Virus record (IMG/VR): IMGVR_UViG_3300044994_000320
Location: 1 to 64,000 of that record
Direction: 5' to 3' (one strand)
Origin: a virus
DNA: 64,000 nt
Below, piece by piece: positions 1 to 63,803 of this stretch. Within the stretch, counting starts at the first letter, position 1. Each line of letters starts with the position of its first letter. The position numbers and the translations under genes are program-made. Under the pieces are notes generated by a model. It saw only the letters and a list, made by a program, of their open reading frames with translations. It had not been told where the DNA came from and made no database searches.

Positions 1-1035
1 CTCGAACGGTTATACGCAGCCGCAAAAAAATTCGGCTTTCGAGTTATTCCTAACCCTAATGCGCTCCCTGACTACTACTCCAAACGCCTCGACTTCGACG
101 CCATCGTATCCCTGATAGAACCCCTCGCAGTCGGTAGTCATTACGACCGGGTCTATACGCACAGCCCTATTGGTGACGAAGGCAGGCATTGGCATCATCA
201 AGATGTTGCGCTCGCCGTATCCTGGCTTTTCAAAGATCGCGCCCGTTTTAGAATCCACGGGCTAAATACGCGAGGAGACAATTACGTGCTCAGCGCAGAT
301 ACCTACAAAGCCAAGATCGAAGCTCTGTATAGTGCTTACCCAGAAGAAACCGAAGAGTTTTCAGAGTGTTTCGCGTATTTCACCGAAGAAAGCGTCATAG
401 AATTGCCTTTTTATTTCGTCTGGCTCTTGTACGCCTGGCATTCAGAGATAAGCTTCGAAAGCAAGCTTATGAACAGTCACCCAGATTTTTCAGACACGTG
501 GAATATGCGTCAATCGCCATACGAAAACGCCAAACTTCAAAGGTACATCGGCGTGCTTAAAAATCTGCTCTCCGGTAAAGACTTTTCTGGTATAGAGTTC
601 GGCCCATATCTTGGTCTGTACTCGCGCAAATTTTTAGAAGAAGGTATCGTCAAACGCCTCTCTATGGTTGAGGTTTGCGATAAGCATTACCCCGATCTCA
701 TCCCGCTTGGTGAAGTCAAAAAGAACTTAGGTGATTTCCCACCTCAGCAATTTGACGTTGCTTTTTTCATGGAGGTAGTTTACTACTTCTCGAAAGAAGA
801 CTCAGAAAAAATCATCGAGTGGTTTAAGCGTAACGGGCTACCGCAGTACCTCGTTTTTTCTAACCCCCAAGAGTTTATGGATTTATTCATGTCTACTGAC
901 GCAGAATTCAAAGCCGCGTACAAGCTTATTGACTTAACCGAGATATCTTCTGAGTTCGAGTACAATTTCAGTCGCCCGGAGTTCTTGTTTCGTAGGAACA
1001 AGACTGCGCTATACATATACGAAAGATGCCAGTAA
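1..1035 (+). CDS. 5'-truncated PIG-L/LmbE-family deacetylase fused to NodS-like class I SAM methyltransferase
   Basis: Frame 1 is open from base 1 into the listed 286..1035 ORF. N-part has VYTHSPIGDEGRHWHHQDVALAV (PIG-L THxxxGxxxHxxH-type motif); C-part has DTW...SPYENAK, IEFGPYLG and FDVAFFMEVVYY (NodS-like motifs). Confidence 0.7.
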   Translation, partial: LERLYAAAKKFGFRVIPNPNALPDYYSKRLDFDAIVSLIEPLAVGSHYDRVYTHSPIGDEGRHWHHQDVALAVSWLFKDRARFRIHGLNTRGDNYVLSADTYKAKIEALYSAYPEETEEFSECFAYFTEESVIELPFYFVWLLYAWHSEISFESKLMNSHPDFSDTWNMRQSPYENAKLQRYIGVLKNLLSGKDFSGIEFGPYLGLYSRKFLEEGIVKRLSMVEVCDKHYPDLIPLGEVKKNLGDFPPQQFDVAFFMEVVYYFSKEDSEKIIEWFKRNGLPQYLVFSNPQEFMDLFMSTDAEFKAAYKLIDLTEISSEFEYNFSRPEFLFRRNKTALYIYERCQ

Positions 1036-3722: not shown

Positions 3723-4756
3723 TATTCCAGATTCCTATAGAGCCTCTCGAAGAGCGTTACTCTTCGCAATGGGAAAGGTGGTTCAGCGCTTTCTTCGATA
3801 AGCATGACGTGCCGTATCAGAATATCCCCGGCTCAATACTTCGCGGCGAAATAAAAGATGGTGCTTTTCTCGATGCGTTCAACACGAACTACTGGAAAAG
3901 TGCGCAGCTCAAAAACATTATCGAGCTTTTAGAAAAAGGCGAAATCCGTGACGGTGACGTGCTCTTTTTTCATGATCTTTGGTTTCCTGGTATAGAGCAG
4001 CTTGCGTACATACGAGATGTTACAAAGAAAAAGTTTCGCATCGCTGGGTACTTGCATGCAGGTACGTGGGATGCTTACGACTTCCTTACGAGGCATCTAA
4101 CCCCTTGGGTTACGTCTTTCGAGCAAATGCTTATGGATGTAGTCGATGTTGTTATGCTTGGGTCAAATTTTCACGCCGGACTTATATCTGCCGCGTTTCC
4201 AGCTTACAGCAAAAAATTGAATGTTATTGGCTTGCCTTTTAATTTCTTAGAAATTGTTCCCAGTCCAGAAATGTCGATACCAGCGTTGGCCCACGATACC
4301 ACTTTTACTATCGTTTTTCCGCACAGGCTGGATCAGGAAAAAAGACCAGAACTTTTCGACTCACTAAAAAACTACGCTCCGTTGCAAGATTATGCTTTCG
4401 TAAAAACGCGAGATTACTGGAACGGGTATAAGCAAGACTACTACGATCTGCTGTCTACTTGCACTCTTGCAGTATCTTTTGCTAAGCAAGAGACTTTCGG
4501 CATTGCTATGGTTGAAGCTGCGATTTTAGGGTGTCTGCCTGTTTTGCCTAAAGCCCTGGCTTACCCAGATGTATGGCCGCAAGAAGGCCCACTTTGGTAC
4601 ACCGATGTCGCGCAAGTAAAAGAGATTCTTTCAAGCTATTTAAGGAGCTTTAACGCTAAAGAACACAAAAAGCGTTTGTCTATTTGCACAAGCCATCTAC
4701 GTGCAAATTATTCTCTACAGACTGTAGGAGAAAAAGTGTTGCGTTTACTGCTATGA
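3719..4756 (+). CDS. GT-B glycosyltransferase, paralog 3 (GTDC1/QTMAN-like C-domain)
   Basis: FPHRLDQEKRPELF and QETFGIAMVEAAILGCLPVLPKALAYPD motifs. Confidence 0.85.
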   Translation: MIFQIPIEPLEERYSSQWERWFSAFFDKHDVPYQNIPGSILRGEIKDGAFLDAFNTNYWKSAQLKNIIELLEKGEIRDGDVLFFHDLWFPGIEQLAYIRDVTKKKFRIAGYLHAGTWDAYDFLTRHLTPWVTSFEQMLMDVVDVVMLGSNFHAGLISAAFPAYSKKLNVIGLPFNFLEIVPSPEMSIPALAHDTTFTIVFPHRLDQEKRPELFDSLKNYAPLQDYAFVKTRDYWNGYKQDYYDLLSTCTLAVSFAKQETFGIAMVEAAILGCLPVLPKALAYPDVWPQEGPLWYTDVAQVKEILSSYLRSFNAKEHKKRLSICTSHLRANYSLQTVGEKVLRLLL

Positions 4757-6153
4757 AACTATTTCTTTCAGGCGCAGAAAATCAAAAAGCATTCGGTACT
4801 ATCACGCATATAAAGCACCCGTATGTGCTTATGTCTTTCCTTTATCTGAGAAAAAAGAAAACCACGCTCGAACAGTACCTTGATAAAGCTGGATATGACA
4901 TGAAGTTTATGATCGATTCTGGCGCGCACTCTTTTATTGATAACGGCGTTGCGCACTCTTTGAAATCCCAGAACCCTCAAAATGACGTTATGCGCTTTAT
5001 CGACGAGTATCTAACGTTTTTAGATCGTAATAAAAAGTTCATTGATTTGGCGGTAGAGTTAGACTTGCAACGTGCCCCGTGGGATTTAGACAAAGACCCA
5101 GAAGACCATGTAGGCTTCGATATTGTACGAAAATGGCGCCAAGAGATTTTCTCTAAACTAGACCTCGGTTTTCCGATCATATTTGTGAATCACGAAGAGC
5201 CATGGGAAGAAACCGCCTCATACGGGAAATTCATAGGACTATCCGCTACCAAAGAACACCAGAGAGCCTATGGCAAAGTTTTTACTCTCGCAAAAAAGCT
5301 TAATATCGGCGTTCACGGTTTTGCCGTTACTGGTAAAGAAATAAAGCGCTTACCTTTTACCACGGTTGACTCGACTTCATGGCTTTCCGGTAACCGTTTT
5401 GGTGTAACATACTGGTTTCGAGGTTCGTCGATGCTTACCATCGACAAAAACTACAAGCACCGTCGTCGCGCTATGAAAAAAGAGTGCGAAGATTACGGCA
5501 TTGATCATAAATTATTGATGGAAGATGACGATGACGCTATCATGCTGTGGAATGCGTATCAGTGGAAAAAGTACGCAAACTGGGTAGAACAAAGGTGGAC
5601 TAAGATGTCAGGAACAGGCACTCATCACGTATTCGAAGAGTTCGACAAAGAGAAACAAGAGTCAGAGGGTATTTTAGCAGGCATTGATGACCCGCCCCAA
5701 GAGAGCGCCCACGCGAACTCAGACCCCGTACAGGAAGCCGAAGACCTTCCGGTAGCCGCTACACGCGTTCCGACAACAGGGATCACCATCAGTTTGGACA
5801 ATAACCCTATCGATAACCTACGCTGTGCTAATTGCTATATTCAGGAAACCTGCCCCGCGTTTAATCCGGCCCCAGACGCTACCTGCAGCATTTCTGTAGA
5901 CCTTAAGATCGAAACCGGTGACGATTACGTGAAGCTCGTGAACAAAGTTATCGAAATCCAGTCTGAACGCGTTTTGCGCGGAAGAATGGCCGAAAGACAA
6001 GATGGCGGTTTACCAGATAAAACACTGTCAGGAGAGCTTAACTTGCTTTTAGACATGATTGCTAAAAGCAAAGAGATATTTGACACGCGCGATTCTCTTG
6101 TCATCAAGGCAAAGGGCAAGGGCATCTTGTCCAAAATTTTTGCCGGCAAATAG
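4753..6153 (+). CDS. dpdA: DpdA/TGT-like guanine transglycosylase with C-terminal Cys4 domain
   Basis: TIM-barrel motifs FMIDSGAHSF, AVELD, VHGFA, PFTTVDSTSW typical of phage TGT/DpdA-like enzymes; close to queD; ATG overlaps upstream stop (ATGA). Confidence 0.72.
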   Translation: MKLFLSGAENQKAFGTITHIKHPYVLMSFLYLRKKKTTLEQYLDKAGYDMKFMIDSGAHSFIDNGVAHSLKSQNPQNDVMRFIDEYLTFLDRNKKFIDLAVELDLQRAPWDLDKDPEDHVGFDIVRKWRQEIFSKLDLGFPIIFVNHEEPWEETASYGKFIGLSATKEHQRAYGKVFTLAKKLNIGVHGFAVTGKEIKRLPFTTVDSTSWLSGNRFGVTYWFRGSSMLTIDKNYKHRRRAMKKECEDYGIDHKLLMEDDDDAIMLWNAYQWKKYANWVEQRWTKMSGTGTHHVFEEFDKEKQESEGILAGIDDPPQESAHANSDPVQEAEDLPVAATRVPTTGITISLDNNPIDNLRCANCYIQETCPAFNPAPDATCSISVDLKIETGDDYVKLVNKVIEIQSERVLRGRMAERQDGGLPDKTLSGELNLLLDMIAKSKEIFDTRDSLVIKAKGKGILSKIFAGK

Positions 6154-6164
6154 GAGTAACTAAA

Positions 6165-6512
6165 ATGGATACAAATATGAAAAGCCAGCGTAACTATCGC
6201 GATTCGGGTACGACAATGCGGTCACCTAATATCCCGGCAGTTACTGGTACAAAGTCAGCGCGGAACGGTGTGCAGAGCTCTTCAATCATCGATCCAACGC
6301 TGCGCGGTAATGGCGGTAATGCCGCTTCATACCGTGGATTGGGTAAAGAGGTCATGCTCACCCCAGTTGAAAAGTCAGGCCTTTGGGCCGGGCTCCGTCA
6401 GGGTGTCACGCATTTGGCCCCGGAAACTTCTAAGAATAAGCTGACTCCAGGTCAGGATGGCAGTACGTGGGACACCACACCTGCCGGCCATCGAGCCGCA
6501 GCAGGTTACTAA
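6165..6512 (+). CDS. Small Gly/Ser/Thr-rich hypothetical protein
   Basis: AGGAG RBS, 115 aa ORF filling the dpdA-queD gap. Confidence 0.6.
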   Translation: MDTNMKSQRNYRDSGTTMRSPNIPAVTGTKSARNGVQSSSIIDPTLRGNGGNAASYRGLGKEVMLTPVEKSGLWAGLRQGVTHLAPETSKNKLTPGQDGSTWDTTPAGHRAAAGY

Positions 6513-6526
6513 AGCGAGAGGTAAGC

Positions 6527-7372
6527 GTGCGCCAGTCCATGTTTTACAAAAATCTTACGGTAGTTGATTTCGCCTATTTTACAGAAGCCGAGGGTCTCCG
6601 AGGAGAATCCCTTATCTGTAACGTTGAGCTTGTAGGCGAAGTCCCCAAAGATGGTATGATATTGGATTTCGGCAAAGCAAAAAAGATCATCAAATCCGTG
6701 ATTGACCAAAAAGTAGATCATACAGTCGTTTTGAACTCTAGATTTGCAAGGCTAAACGGTGATGGAACTGCAACAGTAGACACCCCGACGCACGCTTATA
6801 CCGCTCCATGCCCTGCATTTTGTTTCCTTGATACAGACTATTCTGTCGGCGCTCTAGAAGCGCACATTCAAAAAGTTATTCGAGAGGCGCTCAGAGAAGA
6901 CTCAAAAGTGTCTGAAGTTTCCGTCGCGCTTTTAGCAGAGCCTCTTCCACAAGGCAAAACCAGTTTTCAGTACACACACGGGCTAAAATTTCATGACGGG
7001 AATTGCCAACGTATTTGGCATGGTCATAGAAACACTGTTGATGTCTTCATAAACGGGCAACAAGACTACGAGCTTGAGCATAAGCTTGTCGCAACCATTC
7101 TTAAAGGTTCAGTGCACTTTGCAGAAAAAAGTGTTTTTCGCTCAGTAGGTGAAGATTATATGGTTGGCCAAGTAGAGTACACGTCATCCCAAGGAAAGTT
7201 TCACTCTCGTCTACCTATTCAGGAAATCATCGTTATGGATTGTGAGCCATCAATCGAAAATATCGCGTCTTTTCTTTTAGGATGCGTTGTTAAAATGGGA
7301 GCCAGCGGCCTTATCGAAGTCGTAGCTTACGAGGGTATCGGAAAAGGGGCAATAGCACGTACCCGAATTTGA
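6527..7372 (+). CDS. queD: Two-domain 6-carboxy-5,6,7,8-tetrahydropterin synthase (QueD-like)
   Basis: GMILDFGKAKK..DH in first T-fold; HGLKFHDGNCQRIWHGH and EPSIENIA in second T-fold. Confidence 0.88.
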   Translation: MRQSMFYKNLTVVDFAYFTEAEGLRGESLICNVELVGEVPKDGMILDFGKAKKIIKSVIDQKVDHTVVLNSRFARLNGDGTATVDTPTHAYTAPCPAFCFLDTDYSVGALEAHIQKVIREALREDSKVSEVSVALLAEPLPQGKTSFQYTHGLKFHDGNCQRIWHGHRNTVDVFINGQQDYELEHKLVATILKGSVHFAEKSVFRSVGEDYMVGQVEYTSSQGKFHSRLPIQEIIVMDCEPSIENIASFLLGCVVKMGASGLIEVVAYEGIGKGAIARTRI

Positions 7373-7390
7373 CGTGTTTTTGGAGCATTT

Positions 7391-7477
7391 CTAACCACCC
7401 CCTACCACCCCCTTACCACCCCTACCACCCCCCTACCACCCCCCTTACCACCCCTTACCACCCCCCCCCCCCTACCA
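7391..7477 (+). repeat. Imperfect tandem array of C(4-12)-T(T)ACCA units (8 TACCA-like cores)
   Basis: Read directly: C-runs of 5,5,4,6,6,4,12 separated by TACCA/TTACCA. Confidence 0.9.
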
Positions 7478-7532
7478 AAAATAACAAAAATAACAAAAAT
7501 CACTTTACAAAATATCTCACCCTTTTTACACT
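7477..7532 (+). promoter_or_regulatory. sigma70-like early promoter with A-tract UP element
   Basis: AAAAATAAC repeats, TTTACA (7504-7509), 17-bp spacer, TACACT (7527-7532); homologous element at 63456-63505. Confidence 0.7.
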
Positions 7533-7705
7533 ACCCCTAACCACCCCATAAAAAACGGGGTGCAAAAAGTCCCTAAAAAATGGGCCACCAAAAAATCCTA
7601 CCTTAACAGGTCGGGCGCTGCGGGAGCAGACTTGGGGGCAACGAGCTCACTTTTCCCACAACAAAAGTACGGAAGCAGTCGGGAGGCCGGCGGGCGACAT
7701 AGTTG

Positions 7706-7760
7706 TTAACCCTTCGTGCCCTTCTAAAGTTTTAAGTATAGAAGGGCACCATAGGGTTAA
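7706..7760 (+). promoter_or_regulatory. RNA hairpin 1 with UC/CAU internal loop (RNase III-like site)
   Basis: TTAACCCT-TC-GTGCCCTTCTA...TAGAAGGGCAC-CAT-AGGGTTAA just upstream of an RBS. Confidence 0.65.
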
Positions 7761-7778
7761 TCACCCAAGGAGTCACAA

Positions 7779-8003
7779 ATGAAAATACAGAAAAAAGAAA
7801 AACTCAGAATCGCAAAGATCCTCGGTTATCTCGATGGAAGGCTAGAACGTCGTTCTCCCCTATCCAAAAAGATCGCTGATAAGATCGTCGAAACTATAGT
7901 TCGTTTTGGCTGGGTTACAGACTGTGGCGAGTATCTTGATAAGCAGTTTAAGCAAACAGCTTACGCTGCTTATTCAAGGTCTTGCGCGATTCGTGGTTGT
8001 TAG
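7779..8003 (+). CDS. Early hypothetical protein
   Basis: AAGGAG RBS; N-terminus KLRIAKILGYLDGR resembles 8647..8850 (KYKLCKIFGYMRGR). Confidence 0.7.
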   Translation: MKIQKKEKLRIAKILGYLDGRLERRSPLSKKIADKIVETIVRFGWVTDCGEYLDKQFKQTAYAAYSRSCAIRGC

Positions 8004-8043
8004 TTGTTCCTGCGCGTCTTAATCGGCGCGCAGCATAGAGCTA
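8001..8043 (+). promoter_or_regulatory. RNA hairpin 2 with UC/CAU internal loop
   Basis: TC-CTGCGCGTC...GGCGCGCAG-CAT with imperfect lower stem. Confidence 0.55.
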
Positions 8044-8067
8044 ACAAAGCTCAAGGAGAATCACAAA

Positions 8068-8316
8068 ATGAAAAACAAAGAACCCGTAACACCCAAGCAA
8101 ATCGCCGAAGCGGTTTTAACCGCTAAGCGAGAGGCTAAAGACCCGTATGCGCAAATCTATCTGAACGCGCTACCGCTTGCTGCCGAAGAGTATGGCAGCG
8201 AGGGAGTGCTCGTTCAGCTGATGTACGCAATGGGCAATCTCGGTACTTGGCGCGGTGAAAAAGCGCGCGAGTGCAAAGACATTATCAAAAGATTTCTGAA
8301 ACAAAACGGCAAGTAG
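8068..8316 (+). CDS. Early hypothetical protein
   Basis: AAGGAG RBS, 82 aa ORF. Confidence 0.75.
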   Translation: MKNKEPVTPKQIAEAVLTAKREAKDPYAQIYLNALPLAAEEYGSEGVLVQLMYAMGNLGTWRGEKARECKDIIKRFLKQNGK

Positions 8317-8333
8317 TCGTTAAGGAGAACACA

Positions 8334-8636
8334 ATGAAAAAGAAAACAGCCAAGAAACAAACAATGAAAAAAATCGACAGGCTTTGCCCGCACAGCGAAA
8401 GCAAGTCTACAGATGCTGCTGACTACATGAAAGTAGGCGGCATCGAGTACTTTCGATTCTCAGGTAAAGTTGATTACATTCACCTTTTTGATGAGTCGGC
8501 GCTGTGTGAAAAGCCTTGTCTCTCTCACAATTACGCAGCGCTAAAGCCAAACGGTATCGTTTGCCCAGAGTGCCAAGCCAAAGCGATGGAAATTTCGCGC
8601 TTAGTAAAAGCGGCTAAGAAAGCCGCCGTAGCGTAA
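8334..8636 (+). CDS. Early hypothetical protein, putative Zn-binding (H..C..CPEC)
   Basis: AAGGAG RBS before ATG 8334. Confidence 0.65.
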   Translation: MKKKTAKKQTMKKIDRLCPHSESKSTDAADYMKVGGIEYFRFSGKVDYIHLFDESALCEKPCLSHNYAALKPNGIVCPECQAKAMEISRLVKAAKKAAVA

Positions 8637-8888: not shown

Positions 8889-8940
8889 TTGAGCCGCTAT
8901 CGAGGGTGTGAGCCTATCGCACCCTCTTTTAGCAGCTTGA
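8889..8940 (+). promoter_or_regulatory. RNA hairpin 3 with UC/UUU internal loop
   Basis: GCTA-TC-GAGGGTGTGA...TCGCACCCTC-TTT-TAGC. Confidence 0.65.
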
Positions 8941-9505: not shown

Positions 9506-9552
9506 ACCGCTATCGAGCGCACGAAACTCGTGCGCTCTTTTAGCTGTTTAAT
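9501..9552 (+). promoter_or_regulatory. RNA hairpin 4 with UC/UUU internal loop
   Basis: GCTA-TC-GAGCGCACGA...TCGTGCGCTC-TTT-TAGC. Confidence 0.65.
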
Positions 9553-22050: not shown

Positions 22051-22305
22051 ATGCGTTGGAGTGGTATCATGATGTCTGATATTACAAAGTGCACCGGAGA
22101 ATCTTGTCATGCACGTGATGCTTGCATGAGGTTTACTATTCCTGCAAAACCAGATGGGCAAAGTTGGATGGCCCCTCCAAAATGGACTTTCACTCCGCTG
22201 TGTATGCGAGATGTCTTAATACAGTGCCCATACTTTTTGGCCGACGAGTTACGTGTTAAACAAGACACGGGCACTTACCTCAGCGGTAGAGCAACGGACT
22301 CATAA
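22051..22305 (+). CDS. Small Cys-rich phage protein
   Basis: MSDITKCTGESCHARDACMRF..CPYF; paralog of 17275..17430. Confidence 0.65.
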   Translation: MRWSGIMMSDITKCTGESCHARDACMRFTIPAKPDGQSWMAPPKWTFTPLCMRDVLIQCPYFLADELRVKQDTGTYLSGRATDS

Positions 22306-22372
22306 CCATTTGGTCGTTGGTTCTATACCAACAGTGCCCAAGATAGTCAGTATTAGGAAATAGGAGATAAAA

Positions 22373-27924: not shown

Positions 27925-28004
27925 GGTATAAAGAATTTTTATACCACCTATAAAAAATTTTTCGACCCCTATTAAAATTCTTTATACCACCTATAAAAAA
28001 TTTT
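27925..28004. repeat. 24-bp direct repeat (TTTATACCACCTATAAAAAATTTT x2, 43-bp period) plus overlapping inverted repeat
   Basis: Copies at 27938-27961 and 27981-28004; GGTATAAA (27925-27932) pairs with TTTATACC (27938-27945). Confidence 0.9.
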
Positions 28005-28142
28005 ACCCCTAAATACATAAACAAAATAAAGAAATAGAAAAAGAGAAAAGAACTTGCGCTTTCGCGCGCCGGAGGCAAATGACCTAAAACGATTGACCGC
28101 CTAAAAACAGCATTTTAGAGCGCTTTAGTTTCCCGCAAAAAT

Positions 28143-62077: not shown

Positions 62078-63449
62078 CGTGATTACAGCAAGAATACGCA
62101 ATTTTCCGGCACCTGCTTTTGAAGGGGCCCACGTTCTCGGCTATTTGGTCGATGAAGACCAGATAGACTACTCGTCTTTTGCCGCGTTTCACGCTTCTTT
62201 GCTTTTAGCTATCGTCGACTTTTTTGAAGGCAATCTAATCAACAACGGCGTTGGCAACGGTTTAGAGGTAGCGATTCCACTGAAGTTCAATGACTATGGT
62301 CCGGGCAATTTTAGAGTGCTCTGTTTTATCGATTTGAATTACACTTGGAGTTTTGAAATAGGTTATCCGTATTTTTGGGGGCCGGTGTTCCCTGTCGCTG
62401 ATCCAAATGTCGCAAAAAATTTAGTCTATAATGCATCTCCTACTTTTTTGTGGGATGACTGGCCAGACCCTTCTTTGTATCGTTTCTTGTATGTTCACGC
62501 AGAAAACGGCCTTCTTTGCAAATTCGACACCCCTGTTGAGTACAAGGTTGTCGCTCAAGGAGGAGATTGGAATTCTCCCTCGATTTTCAGTGGTGTAGCC
62601 GGTTGGTGGGGTTTGGAGAATACTGTCCAAACTTTTCTTGATTTTGCTATCGGTTCTTTTGCTCCAGGATTATACACACTGATAATTCGCAATGAAATAA
62701 GCCAGAACTCTGTGTTTGATTTTGGCGATACGTATTTTGCCGCAGATTTTGAAATTGTTTCTTCGGATGTGTACCTAAATATCGCCACTCTAGATTGGTC
62801 TATCTACGCCCCACCAAATGCTTTTTACTCTGGTTGGGGTCTTTATGATTTATGGGAAAAAGTCCCTCAAAAAATTCGCGCAAGAGACAAGAACACTCCG
62901 CAGATAAAAGTTAATGGTGAAGATAGAGGCCAGTTTGAGCGTTTTGTTATGTCTATATCCCACGTTTTAGGAAAGGTTATCGGCAATGTTATTAAGGCGC
63001 AGAAGTCGCGAAATTTCGACGATACGTTTTCTGACTTTCTGATTAAAGACCTTGCATCAAAGTTGTTCCCTTTCGATACTACTTATTCGCCTGAAAGAAA
63101 ACGGATCATTTATTTTGATTCTGTCGGTATGAATAAACACTCTGGAGTTTTTCACGTTTTGCGCGCCTTGTCCGTCAGATTTTTTGGATGGGAAATTGCC
63201 AGCAAAAAAAGTTTCGCCGATTTAGTCTTTTTTTGGAATGAAAATAATTCACGGTTTATAGACGAGTCTAGCTATTTCGATTCCTCAAAGAAGTTCTTTG
63301 ACCCCTCAATACACTCCCCCCTTAATAAGATCACCTATATCATAGATACTCAAGGTGATCCCGACTTCTTAGACAAAAAAGAACGTTACGAATCCTTTAT
63401 CAAACAGTACACGGTTTCTGATTTTATAGTGGAATTTGAGTACCTGTAG
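62070..63449 (+). CDS. Baseplate wedge protein (tail protein I-like C-terminus)
   Basis: Follows baseplate J; LWEKVP..IR..D..FERF..GW motifs. Confidence 0.6.
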   Translation: MCSVITARIRNFPAPAFEGAHVLGYLVDEDQIDYSSFAAFHASLLLAIVDFFEGNLINNGVGNGLEVAIPLKFNDYGPGNFRVLCFIDLNYTWSFEIGYPYFWGPVFPVADPNVAKNLVYNASPTFLWDDWPDPSLYRFLYVHAENGLLCKFDTPVEYKVVAQGGDWNSPSIFSGVAGWWGLENTVQTFLDFAIGSFAPGLYTLIIRNEISQNSVFDFGDTYFAADFEIVSSDVYLNIATLDWSIYAPPNAFYSGWGLYDLWEKVPQKIRARDKNTPQIKVNGEDRGQFERFVMSISHVLGKVIGNVIKAQKSRNFDDTFSDFLIKDLASKLFPFDTTYSPERKRIIYFDSVGMNKHSGVFHVLRALSVRFFGWEIASKKSFADLVFFWNENNSRFIDESSYFDSSKKFFDPSIHSPLNKITYIIDTQGDPDFLDKKERYESFIKQYTVSDFIVEFEYL

Positions 63450-63455
63450 CTACTT

Positions 63456-63505
63456 TAACAAAAATAACAAAAATAACTTTACAACCTATCTACACTCTCT
63501 ACTCT
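63456..63505 (+). promoter_or_regulatory. sigma70-like promoter with A-tract UP element
   Basis: AAAAATAAC x2, TTTACA (63478-63483), 16-bp spacer, TACTCT (63500-63505); homolog of 7477-7532. Confidence 0.65.
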
Positions 63506-63533
63506 TCCCTAACCAAAACCCAAGGAGAAGATT

Positions 63534-63803
63534 ATGCTTGAAAAGCAATTTTTGTCTTCTTCCGATCCAAGTAAGTTTTACACGGCAAAGATTTTCGATG
63601 ATGGTACACAACATTGTACATGCAGCGGATTTTCTTTCCGAAAAACTTGTAAGCACACGGAAGAATTGAAAAAAACAGCCCAACCTAAAAAAGATGAAAA
63701 GGTTGAAGAACAGGCCAAGTACCTTTTTCAGAAAGTGATAAACCACTCAAAAAAGATAATCCTAAAAAAGTTGGAGGACCCGCGTGTTAGAAAAAGCGCT
63801 TAA
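63534..63803 (+). CDS. SWIM zinc-finger protein
   Basis: CTCSGFSFRKTCKH (CxC..CxH); AAGGAG RBS. Confidence 0.85.
   Translation: MLEKQFLSSSDPSKFYTAKIFDDGTQHCTCSGFSFRKTCKHTEELKKTAQPKKDEKVEEQAKYLFQKVINHSKKIILKKLEDPRVRKSA

Follow-up and report, generated by a model that had tools for sequence, protein, structure and literature searches.

In the IMG/VR virus record IMGVR_UViG_3300044994_000320, a stretch of 171 nucleotides on the + strand (positions 7386 to 7556) contains no G. We analyzed this run together with a second one of 74 nt (63450 to 63523) in the window, that is, the whole 64,000-nt stretch of DNA presented here, which is the first 64 kb of a single 87,211-bp contig. The longer run lies between a gene for a QueD/PTPS-domain protein and a block of small open reading frames (ORFs), and it comprises a C-rich tandem array, three A-tract repeats, and a putative host-type promoter, designated P1. 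The shorter run separates the last structural gene from a zinc-finger gene and holds a related putative promoter, P2. The features are listed in Table 1.

Contig positions 87036-87211 repeat the window 1-120 region (an end overlap of ~180 bp with a single mismatch), which makes this a circular assembly; the first gene in the window is cut by the arbitrary origin of the circular contig. Near-identical DNA is present in metagenome runs labelled hot-springs and microbial-mat. The phage is a one-strand, circularly assembled 87-kb hot-spring myovirus, with almost all ORFs on the + strand. Small ORFans, served by hairpin-plus-T terminators of their own, occupy 7779 to ~23.8 kb and are followed by terminase, portal, major head, sheath-like, and baseplate genes ending at 63449. 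The replication module after this point encodes the zinc-finger protein, an ATP-dependent ligase, UvsW-like and DnaB-like helicases, primase, PolA, RecA, and a MoxR ATPase. The last block around the circle is a 7-deazaguanine gene set, with a radical-SAM QueE-like gene and genes for FolE, a GT2 glycosyltransferase, a DpdA-like protein, and the QueD/PTPS-domain protein, which ends at 7372.

Table 1. Features at and around the G-free runs, in window coordinates (SD, Shine-Dalgarno sequence; MFE, minimum free energy)
Feature	Position	Strand	Basis
DpdA-like transglycosylase gene	4684..6153	+	phrog_887, E 4.2e-41
QueD/PTPS-domain gene, last gene before the array	6467..7372	+	PF01242, E 1.6e-14
G-free run, 171 nt	7386..7556	+	base count and run scan
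C-rich tandem array, ~8 units of 9-12 nt, CCCC(C)-T/TT-ACCACC	7391..7477	+	Tandem Repeats Finder, repeat families
C12 homopolymer closing the array	7461..7472	+	sequence; comparison with contigs of other samples
Three 9-nt A-tract repeats (TACCAAAAATAAC / TAACAAAAATAAC / TAACAAAAATCAC), UP-element-like, abutting the -35	7473..7503	+	repeat analysis
Putative P1 core: -35 TTTACA 7504-7509, 17-nt spacer, -10 TACACT 7527-7532	7504..7532	+	promoter scan
CCCTAACCA at P1, at the same offset from the -10 as at P2, spanning the predicted start (~7539-7540)	7535..7543	+	motif match
Structured G-rich leader, ~240 nt, before the first gene	7539..7778	+	MFE -81.5 kcal/mol, z -3.13
Hairpin CACCCC 7542-7547 / GGGGUG 7557-7562 at the predicted 5' end of the P1 transcript	7542..7562	+	RNA folding
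First ORF past P1, 74 aa, SD AAGGAG upstream	7779..8003	+	ORF list; no Pfam/PHROG match
Third G-free run, in the terminase-portal spacer; 66 nt (A 32, C 15, T 19)	27965..28030	+	
G-free run, 74 nt, the entire spacer from stop TAG (63447-63449) to the first G of the SD	63450..63523	+	sequence
Putative P2 cassette: A-tract 9-mers 63456-63477, TTTACA 63478-63483, TACTCT 63500-63505, CCCTAACCA 63507-63515	63456..63515	+	
First gene past P2: zinc-finger protein, 89 aa; then ATP-dependent DNA ligase and the replication module	63534..63803	+	

The first-pass annotation had reported both runs as free of G; their coordinates proved exact, and a genome-wide scan against shuffled controls puts both beyond chance. 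The longest + strand runs in the window are 171, 74, and 66 nt (the last at 27965-28030), and when the whole 87,211-bp contig was scanned, a fourth of 59 nt was found at contig positions 72756-72814. The G-free maximum was 52 in 200 mononucleotide shuffles (mean 38.9), 58 in 100 third-order Markov genomes, and 60 in a further 100 shuffles. Three runs are thus always longer than expected by chance, with the fourth on the border. On the - strand, G-free runs (C-free as read on the + strand) reach 48 nt at most and stay within chance, so the effect is strand-specific; every above-chance run is on the sense strand and none is antisense. G depletion is not general, as G content is 21.5% in intergenic and 23.4% in coding DNA, and the G-poor spacers are limited to these four.

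The 171-nt run (A 57, C 83, T 31) is a composite of three ordinary pieces, each without G: a C-rich tandem repeat, then A-rich DNA just upstream of the -35, and finally a putative host-type promoter. About half of it is tandem repeat, and since the repeat units are G-free by descent, the length of 171 nt overstates the independent evidence. Likewise, P1 and P2 are homologous copies, so that only a single evolutionary event underlies the lack of G in both. Repeats plus homologous copies can in this way yield a long base-free run.

When 63456-63515 was aligned to 7482-7545, 49 of the 64 columns were identical, with 3 gap columns. A profile of both copies searched against the genome with nhmmer returned only P1 and P2 (E values of 5.9e-12 and 6.6e-11), the next match having an E value of 4. 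By this comparison P1 and P2 are two copies of one 64-nt cassette, and the motifs that the first-pass annotation had listed as common to them are all there: the AAAAATAAC repeats, CTTTACA in both, a TACACT or TACTCT -10, CCCTAACCA, and TTTACA as the -35. The 9-mers are AAAAATAAC twice plus AAAAATCAC once at P1 and AAAAATAAC twice at P2. Both cassettes are intergenic and sense-oriented, upstream of SD-led genes that head modules: the small ORFans with intrinsic terminators behind P1, and the replication module with ligase, helicases, primase, PolA, and RecA behind P2.

P1 agrees with TTGACA/TATAAT at 9 of 12 positions. P2 reads TTTACA-16-TACTCT, with 8 of 12 positions by eye, under the threshold of the scanner. 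UP elements are A/T-rich and lie at about -40 to -60, upstream of the -35. The proposal that the two sites are host sigma70-type promoters is plausible in view of the hexamers, the spacers of 16 to 17 nt, the A-tracts abutting the -35, and the duplication. We consider the promoter annotation plausible, and it seems reasonable because of the hexamers and their spacing, the position of the A-tracts, the sense copies at the heads of modules, the duplication, and the 5' hairpin predicted for the P1 transcript. The 171-nt run ends in the loop of this hairpin. The leader behind it has no family match in Rfam; it includes a hairpin at 7716-7749 with 16-bp arms and no T-run. Pfam and PHROG scans of the small ORFs near P1 gave no matches. 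No stretch in the viral contigs has the exact promoter pattern, and none of the four relative records matched it.

The array begins 19 nt past the stop codon (7372) of the QueD-like gene. On 7394-7477, Tandem Repeats Finder reports a period of 10 to 11 with 6.8 to 8.4 copies, 80 to 84% matches, and 13 to 17% indels. The 92 nt from 7386 to 7477 consist of 60 C, 18 A, 14 T, and 0 G, and no other place in the genome has a 78-nt window in which C exceeds G by at least 25. Seen from the other side, 83 of the 171 bp of 7386-7556 have their G on the - strand, and no stretch of either strand is denser in G than the array. The G4Hunter minimum of -2.88 at 7448 is the genome extreme, and a canonical G-quadruplex motif on the - strand at 7428-7472 is one of two in the genome. 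The RNA of 7373-7540 is predicted to be nearly unfolded (-4.27 kcal/mol over 168 nt). The array period of 10 to 11 nt is not a multiple of 3, and the array is therefore non-coding. A 60-aa ORF at 7369-7551 was rejected as a gene for the same reason, as it is open merely because G-free DNA has no TAG or TGA.

The array varies between samples. In runs X3/X4, a low-depth contig (depth 3.4; a single contig in each run) has a C12 tract shorter by 6 nt, and assembly contigs break within the array. The array units resemble the CCCTAACCA motif of the start region, and an 89% copy of two of them lies at 7530-7547, over the predicted start site. The pattern CCCT(1-2)A(1-2)CCA occurs 10 times on the + strand (7 in the array, 1 at each promoter, and 1 in coding DNA) and once on the - strand. 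We also considered TACCACCCC arrays as a widespread phage signal and rejected this, since viral contigs hold 11 such loci versus 14 for the reversed pattern.

The other two runs are of a different make. The third holds a copy of a palindromic repeat with a TTTATA-CCACC-TATAAA core. The fourth is the A-rich spacer between primase and PolA, which it fills up to the SD; it shares CTTTACA only and contains no acceptable -10. In the profile search of the genome, neither the run at 27965 nor that at 72756 was a cassette copy.

We propose that the 171-nt run marks an operon boundary, at which a rut-like site or insulator is followed by a host-type promoter with an UP element, and that its G-lessness is a by-product and not an adaptation. 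We put the probability of this reading at roughly 45%. The slippage-prone C-rich array begins just past the last stop of the co-directional replication and modification block (~31 kb). Read-through RNA would be ~90 nt long here, 65% C, G-free, unstructured, and untranslated. Such RNA would load Rho in the manner of a rut site, or would insulate, and so stop upstream transcription before the next unit. The three phased A-tract 9-mers abutting the -35 would act as an UP element, and the sigma70-type promoter TTTACA-17-TACACT would start a transcript at ~7539 with a 5' hairpin. A-tracts, promoter, and CCCTAACCA start region would together form the 64-nt cassette, whose second copy heads the replication module. 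The lack of G would then follow from what each element needs, namely RNA that is rich in C and unstructured, upstream DNA rich in A, and a leader without structure as far as the SD.

A rut-like role was chosen because the array lies past the last stop, because no intrinsic-terminator-like site is found in 7000-8200, because the C-rich RNA is unfolded, and because a hairpin follows downstream. The sequence has the properties expected of a rut site, with 60 C and 0 G in 92 nt, a predicted lack of structure, a position after the stop codon, and a period out of frame. Intrinsic terminators are clear elsewhere in the phage, for example at 8904, 9517, and 11259. We also count for the boundary reading a 50-nt C-rich tract in a relative of the phage, described below, which lies between a stop codon and an intrinsic terminator. 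The analysis establishes the anatomy, the duplication, the run statistics, and the missing association with dpdA; promoter activity, the start point, and the Rho dependence we infer.

Several points weigh against this proposal. The start site and the 3' ends are predictions. P1 is not significant alone, as 1 P1-like site was found in 7000-8200 compared with 1.1 ± 1.2 in shuffles, and the -10 elements TACACT and TACTCT agree with the consensus at only 4/6 and 3/6 positions, respectively. A role of Rho presumes that the host has Rho. Should both promoters be early, transcription running on from the upstream block may do no harm in the P1 unit, and a terminator is then not required. The resemblance of the array units to CCCTAACCA fits a DNA-binding factor as well as Rho loading. 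The run at 27965-28030 is neither a rut candidate nor a cassette copy. Finally, four independent sense-strand G-free tracts in a phage with G-modification genes become a coincidence, which the proposal explains only piecemeal.

The first-pass annotation had favored a different origin of the missing G. It suggested that in a phage that bulkily modifies G, promoters read by host RNA polymerase on incoming DNA may have lost G from the non-template strand in co-adaptation to the modification system, which on the gene content would be a bulky 7-deazaguanine modification. Modification genes are indeed present (DpdA-like, QueD, FolE, a QueE-like radical-SAM protein, and at least one GT2), all above-chance runs are on the sense strand, and both cassette copies have TTTACA and not TTGACA. 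The discussion section of Hutinet 2019 raises a possible block of sigma and transcription factors by 7-deazaguanines (PMC6884629). However, the purging of G because it is modified is not supported: the duplex keeps its G, the pattern does not track dpdA, and the run lies mostly outside the promoter. The idea that the modifiable base is absent from the duplex contacted by the polymerase fails on the template strand, where from the -35 to the start point G occupies 12 of 37 bp at P1 and 13 of 35 bp at P2. Modification targets are thus enriched and not removed at these sites, and nowhere in the genome is the - strand denser in G than in the array region. Moreover, over half of the 171-nt run is upstream of any polymerase contact; 92 of its nucleotides sit 27 to 118 bp upstream of the -35 and belong to the C-rich repeat. 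The runs at 27965 and 72756 are not promoter copies either.

We compared six dpdA-bearing phages, namely, the capsid relatives BS162P1, BCD7, MT835482, and BRock, and the phages 9g and CAjan, in which modification was measured. In 9g, about a quarter of G is modified. Hutinet 2019 (PMC6884629) reports archaeosine in 9g DNA and a measured modification of 32% of G in CAjan. In our searches, phrog_887 matched both phages (2.5e-100 for 9g and 2.3e-98 for CAjan). None of the six has a C-rich G-free tract on the sense strand. G-free runs above shuffles are found in three of them (108 nt in BS162P1, 75 nt in 9g, and 65 nt in CAjan), and these are AT-rich. The run in BS162P1 is AT-only and hence also C-free, while those in 9g and CAjan are in AT-rich non-coding DNA, with the G-free strand antisense to both flanking genes. 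In both phages the run is part of one long gene-free AT-rich region (9g, NC_024146.1 24867-25903; CAjan, NC_028776.1 49963-50592), where it stands beside a 45-nt C-free run.

Among the relatives with a long contig, IMG/VR 3300033175_000001 is the closest; its contig measures 77 kb and is estimated to be 80% complete. A tblastn search of this contig found no homologue of FolE, QueD, the QueE-like protein, or the glycosyltransferase, and of the DpdA-like protein it has the C-terminal domain only (residues 371-487), without the catalytic part, in a separate 206-aa frame. This frame adjoins a homologue of the 99-aa ORF at contig positions 84742-85041 of our phage. The strand bias of the relative is extreme, with 27% G and 15% C on the coding strand. 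On this strand it carries the 50-nt C-rich G-free tract, which overlaps the end of an ORF with its first 10 nt and is followed after 11 nt by an intrinsic terminator; the tract beats the maximum of 30 shuffles (40) and not that of 100 (57). G-free promoters had been expected to track dpdA across phages. They do not, with none in the six dpdA-bearing phages and a C-rich G-free tract in a relative without the genes in its 77 kb, a cross-phage test that is weak because all comparators are distant.

The link of the G-free runs to G modification is accordingly not supported, and we consider the proposed co-adaptation very improbable. In a broader form, guanine chemistry could have selected for sense-strand G-lessness in that the single strand read by RNA polymerase stays free of modified G, or in that the G-dense strand is quadruplex-competent only when unmodified and so marks new versus incoming or packaged DNA. 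For this we keep a small probability, well short of one in ten, because there are three to four independent sense-strand G-free tracts in a phage with G-modifying genes. Strand- or context-specific modification across the tracts, if true, would tie DNA hypermodification to promoter architecture. Among the matches listed in the literature search, no title or abstract on 7-deazaguanine phages concerned the promoters of modified phages, and none of those from 2022 on concerned sugar-linked deazaguanine DNA. In print, such a link appears in the discussion of Hutinet 2019 as a passing remark (PMC6884629).

The remaining alternatives concern the array. It may be functionless, the product of a microsatellite-like expansion in which replication slippage multiplied the promoter-proximal ACCCCTAACCACCCC motif and which the non-coding spacer tolerates. 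The imperfect units with 17% indels, the length difference of C12 between samples, and the breaks of assembly contigs in the array would all fit, and viral contigs often contain similar C-rich tandem arrays. However, an 87-nt repeat that is placed exactly at an operon boundary and is G-free on one strand exceeds usual drift in a compact genome, and the relatives are too distant to judge whether the array is conserved; we regard neutral slippage as a doubtful but credible explanation. Somewhat less probable, in our estimate, is a set of iterons or operators for a phage or host DNA-binding protein that also binds CCCTAACCA at both starts, for example in early shut-off or activation. The unit spacing of 9 to 12 is about one helical turn, the start site of P1 is overlain by the near-copy of two units, and CCCT(1-2)A(1-2)CCA is found seven times in the array and at each promoter. 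On the other hand, the core indels (TA, TTA, and TAA) and the variable C-run length are unusual for a sequence-specific site, TACCACCCC arrays elsewhere are no more common than the reversed control, and the Pfam and PHROG scans of the neighbours, the only ones made, provided no candidate binder.

The array could also act as a DNA structure, with a G-quadruplex on the - strand or an i-motif on the + strand forming a barrier to replication, packaging, or transcription near a genome landmark. The canonical motif, the extreme G4Hunter value, and a cumulative GC skew minimum in the 7-8 kb bin speak for this, although the skew minimum is partly produced by the array itself. In 7-deazaguanine there is no N7, so Hoogsteen tetrads do not form, and modified DNA would not fold. 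We give this structural role little chance.

Set beside known systems, the elements of our proposed operon boundary are of known kinds and are ordinary features. Like T4 early promoters, T7 A1, and lambda PL, the cassette has sigma70-type -35 and -10 elements with a 16- to 17-nt spacer and A-rich repeats upstream of the -35, and it occurs in few near-identical copies at the heads of early gene blocks. T4 early promoters are described as UP/-35/TGn/-10 in Hinton 2010 (PMC2988021). Unlike these, P1 and P2 have no TGn extension, weak -10 elements, and a C-rich CCCTAACCA start region, and there are two copies only. A GTTTAC-type -35 preference of T4 early promoters was not confirmed in the literature search. 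According to Hinton 2010 (PMC2988021), rut sites lack structure, are in some cases rich in C, and are accessible in intergenic DNA. The array resembles rut sites such as lambda tR1: past a stop codon it would give ~90 nt of untranslated, unstructured RNA that is rich in C and free of G, and a downstream hairpin could pause the polymerase. Its construction from a regular 10- to 11-nt tandem repeat, however, is atypical for natural rut sites. With runs of at least 4 C, loops of 5 to 6 nt, and eight repeats, the array is also similar to telomere-like C-strand repeats that form G-quadruplexes or i-motifs; however, it is internal to a circular contig, in a genome predicted to replace G by 7-deazaguanine, which would prevent tetrads. 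In its discussion, Hutinet 2019 argues that the housekeeping sigma site is AT-rich and therefore little affected by modification (PMC6884629). The question of modified G versus sigma binding is the same here, but our promoters are C-rich on one strand and not AT-only. If the boundary reading is true, it adds to the annotation of this very isolated hot-spring phage a pair of host-type promoters and a probable terminator or insulator.

The isolation of the phage is apparent from sequence comparisons. A blastn search of 6400-8400 against phage records gave no match. The top capsid relatives are two IMG/VR contigs with 51% identity, followed at 34 to 39% by a faecal phage, Bacteroides phage BS162P1, Bacillus phage BCD7, and Streptomyces BRock-like phages. 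In genome contigs, the capsid protein had one match only, of 29% (Lentzea), which gives no host clue. The DpdA-like protein had no match in viral contigs, and the search with the 459-aa protein encoded upstream of P2 returned this protein alone. Relatives of the QueD-like protein were found at 1 distant locus in viral contigs and at 14 loci in metagenome contigs (29 to 42% identity); at these loci, no comparable G-free tract adjoins the gene.

ARAGORN found no tRNA, and in the region of the array and P1 the Rfam scan gave no family. Elsewhere, Rfam gives a tRNA match at 22269-22340 (41.4 bits, E 2.3e-05), for which ARAGORN makes no call. For TCTTTTAG, the + strand has 17 copies and the - strand 12, with ~1.5 expected on each; TCTTTTAG/CTCTTTTAGC was dropped as a special intergenic word because other words are equally enriched under the same crude model. 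Terminator-like GC hairpins at 8904-8933, 9517-9544, 36467, and contig position 82204 are each followed by a conserved CTCTTTTAGC. At 27925-28005, overlapping the third G-free run, a palindrome of 21 to 24 bp (TTTTTATA-CCACC-TATAAAAA) occurs twice, 43 bp apart, with ACCCCTA after each copy, and these palindromes could be an operator or a packaging-related site.

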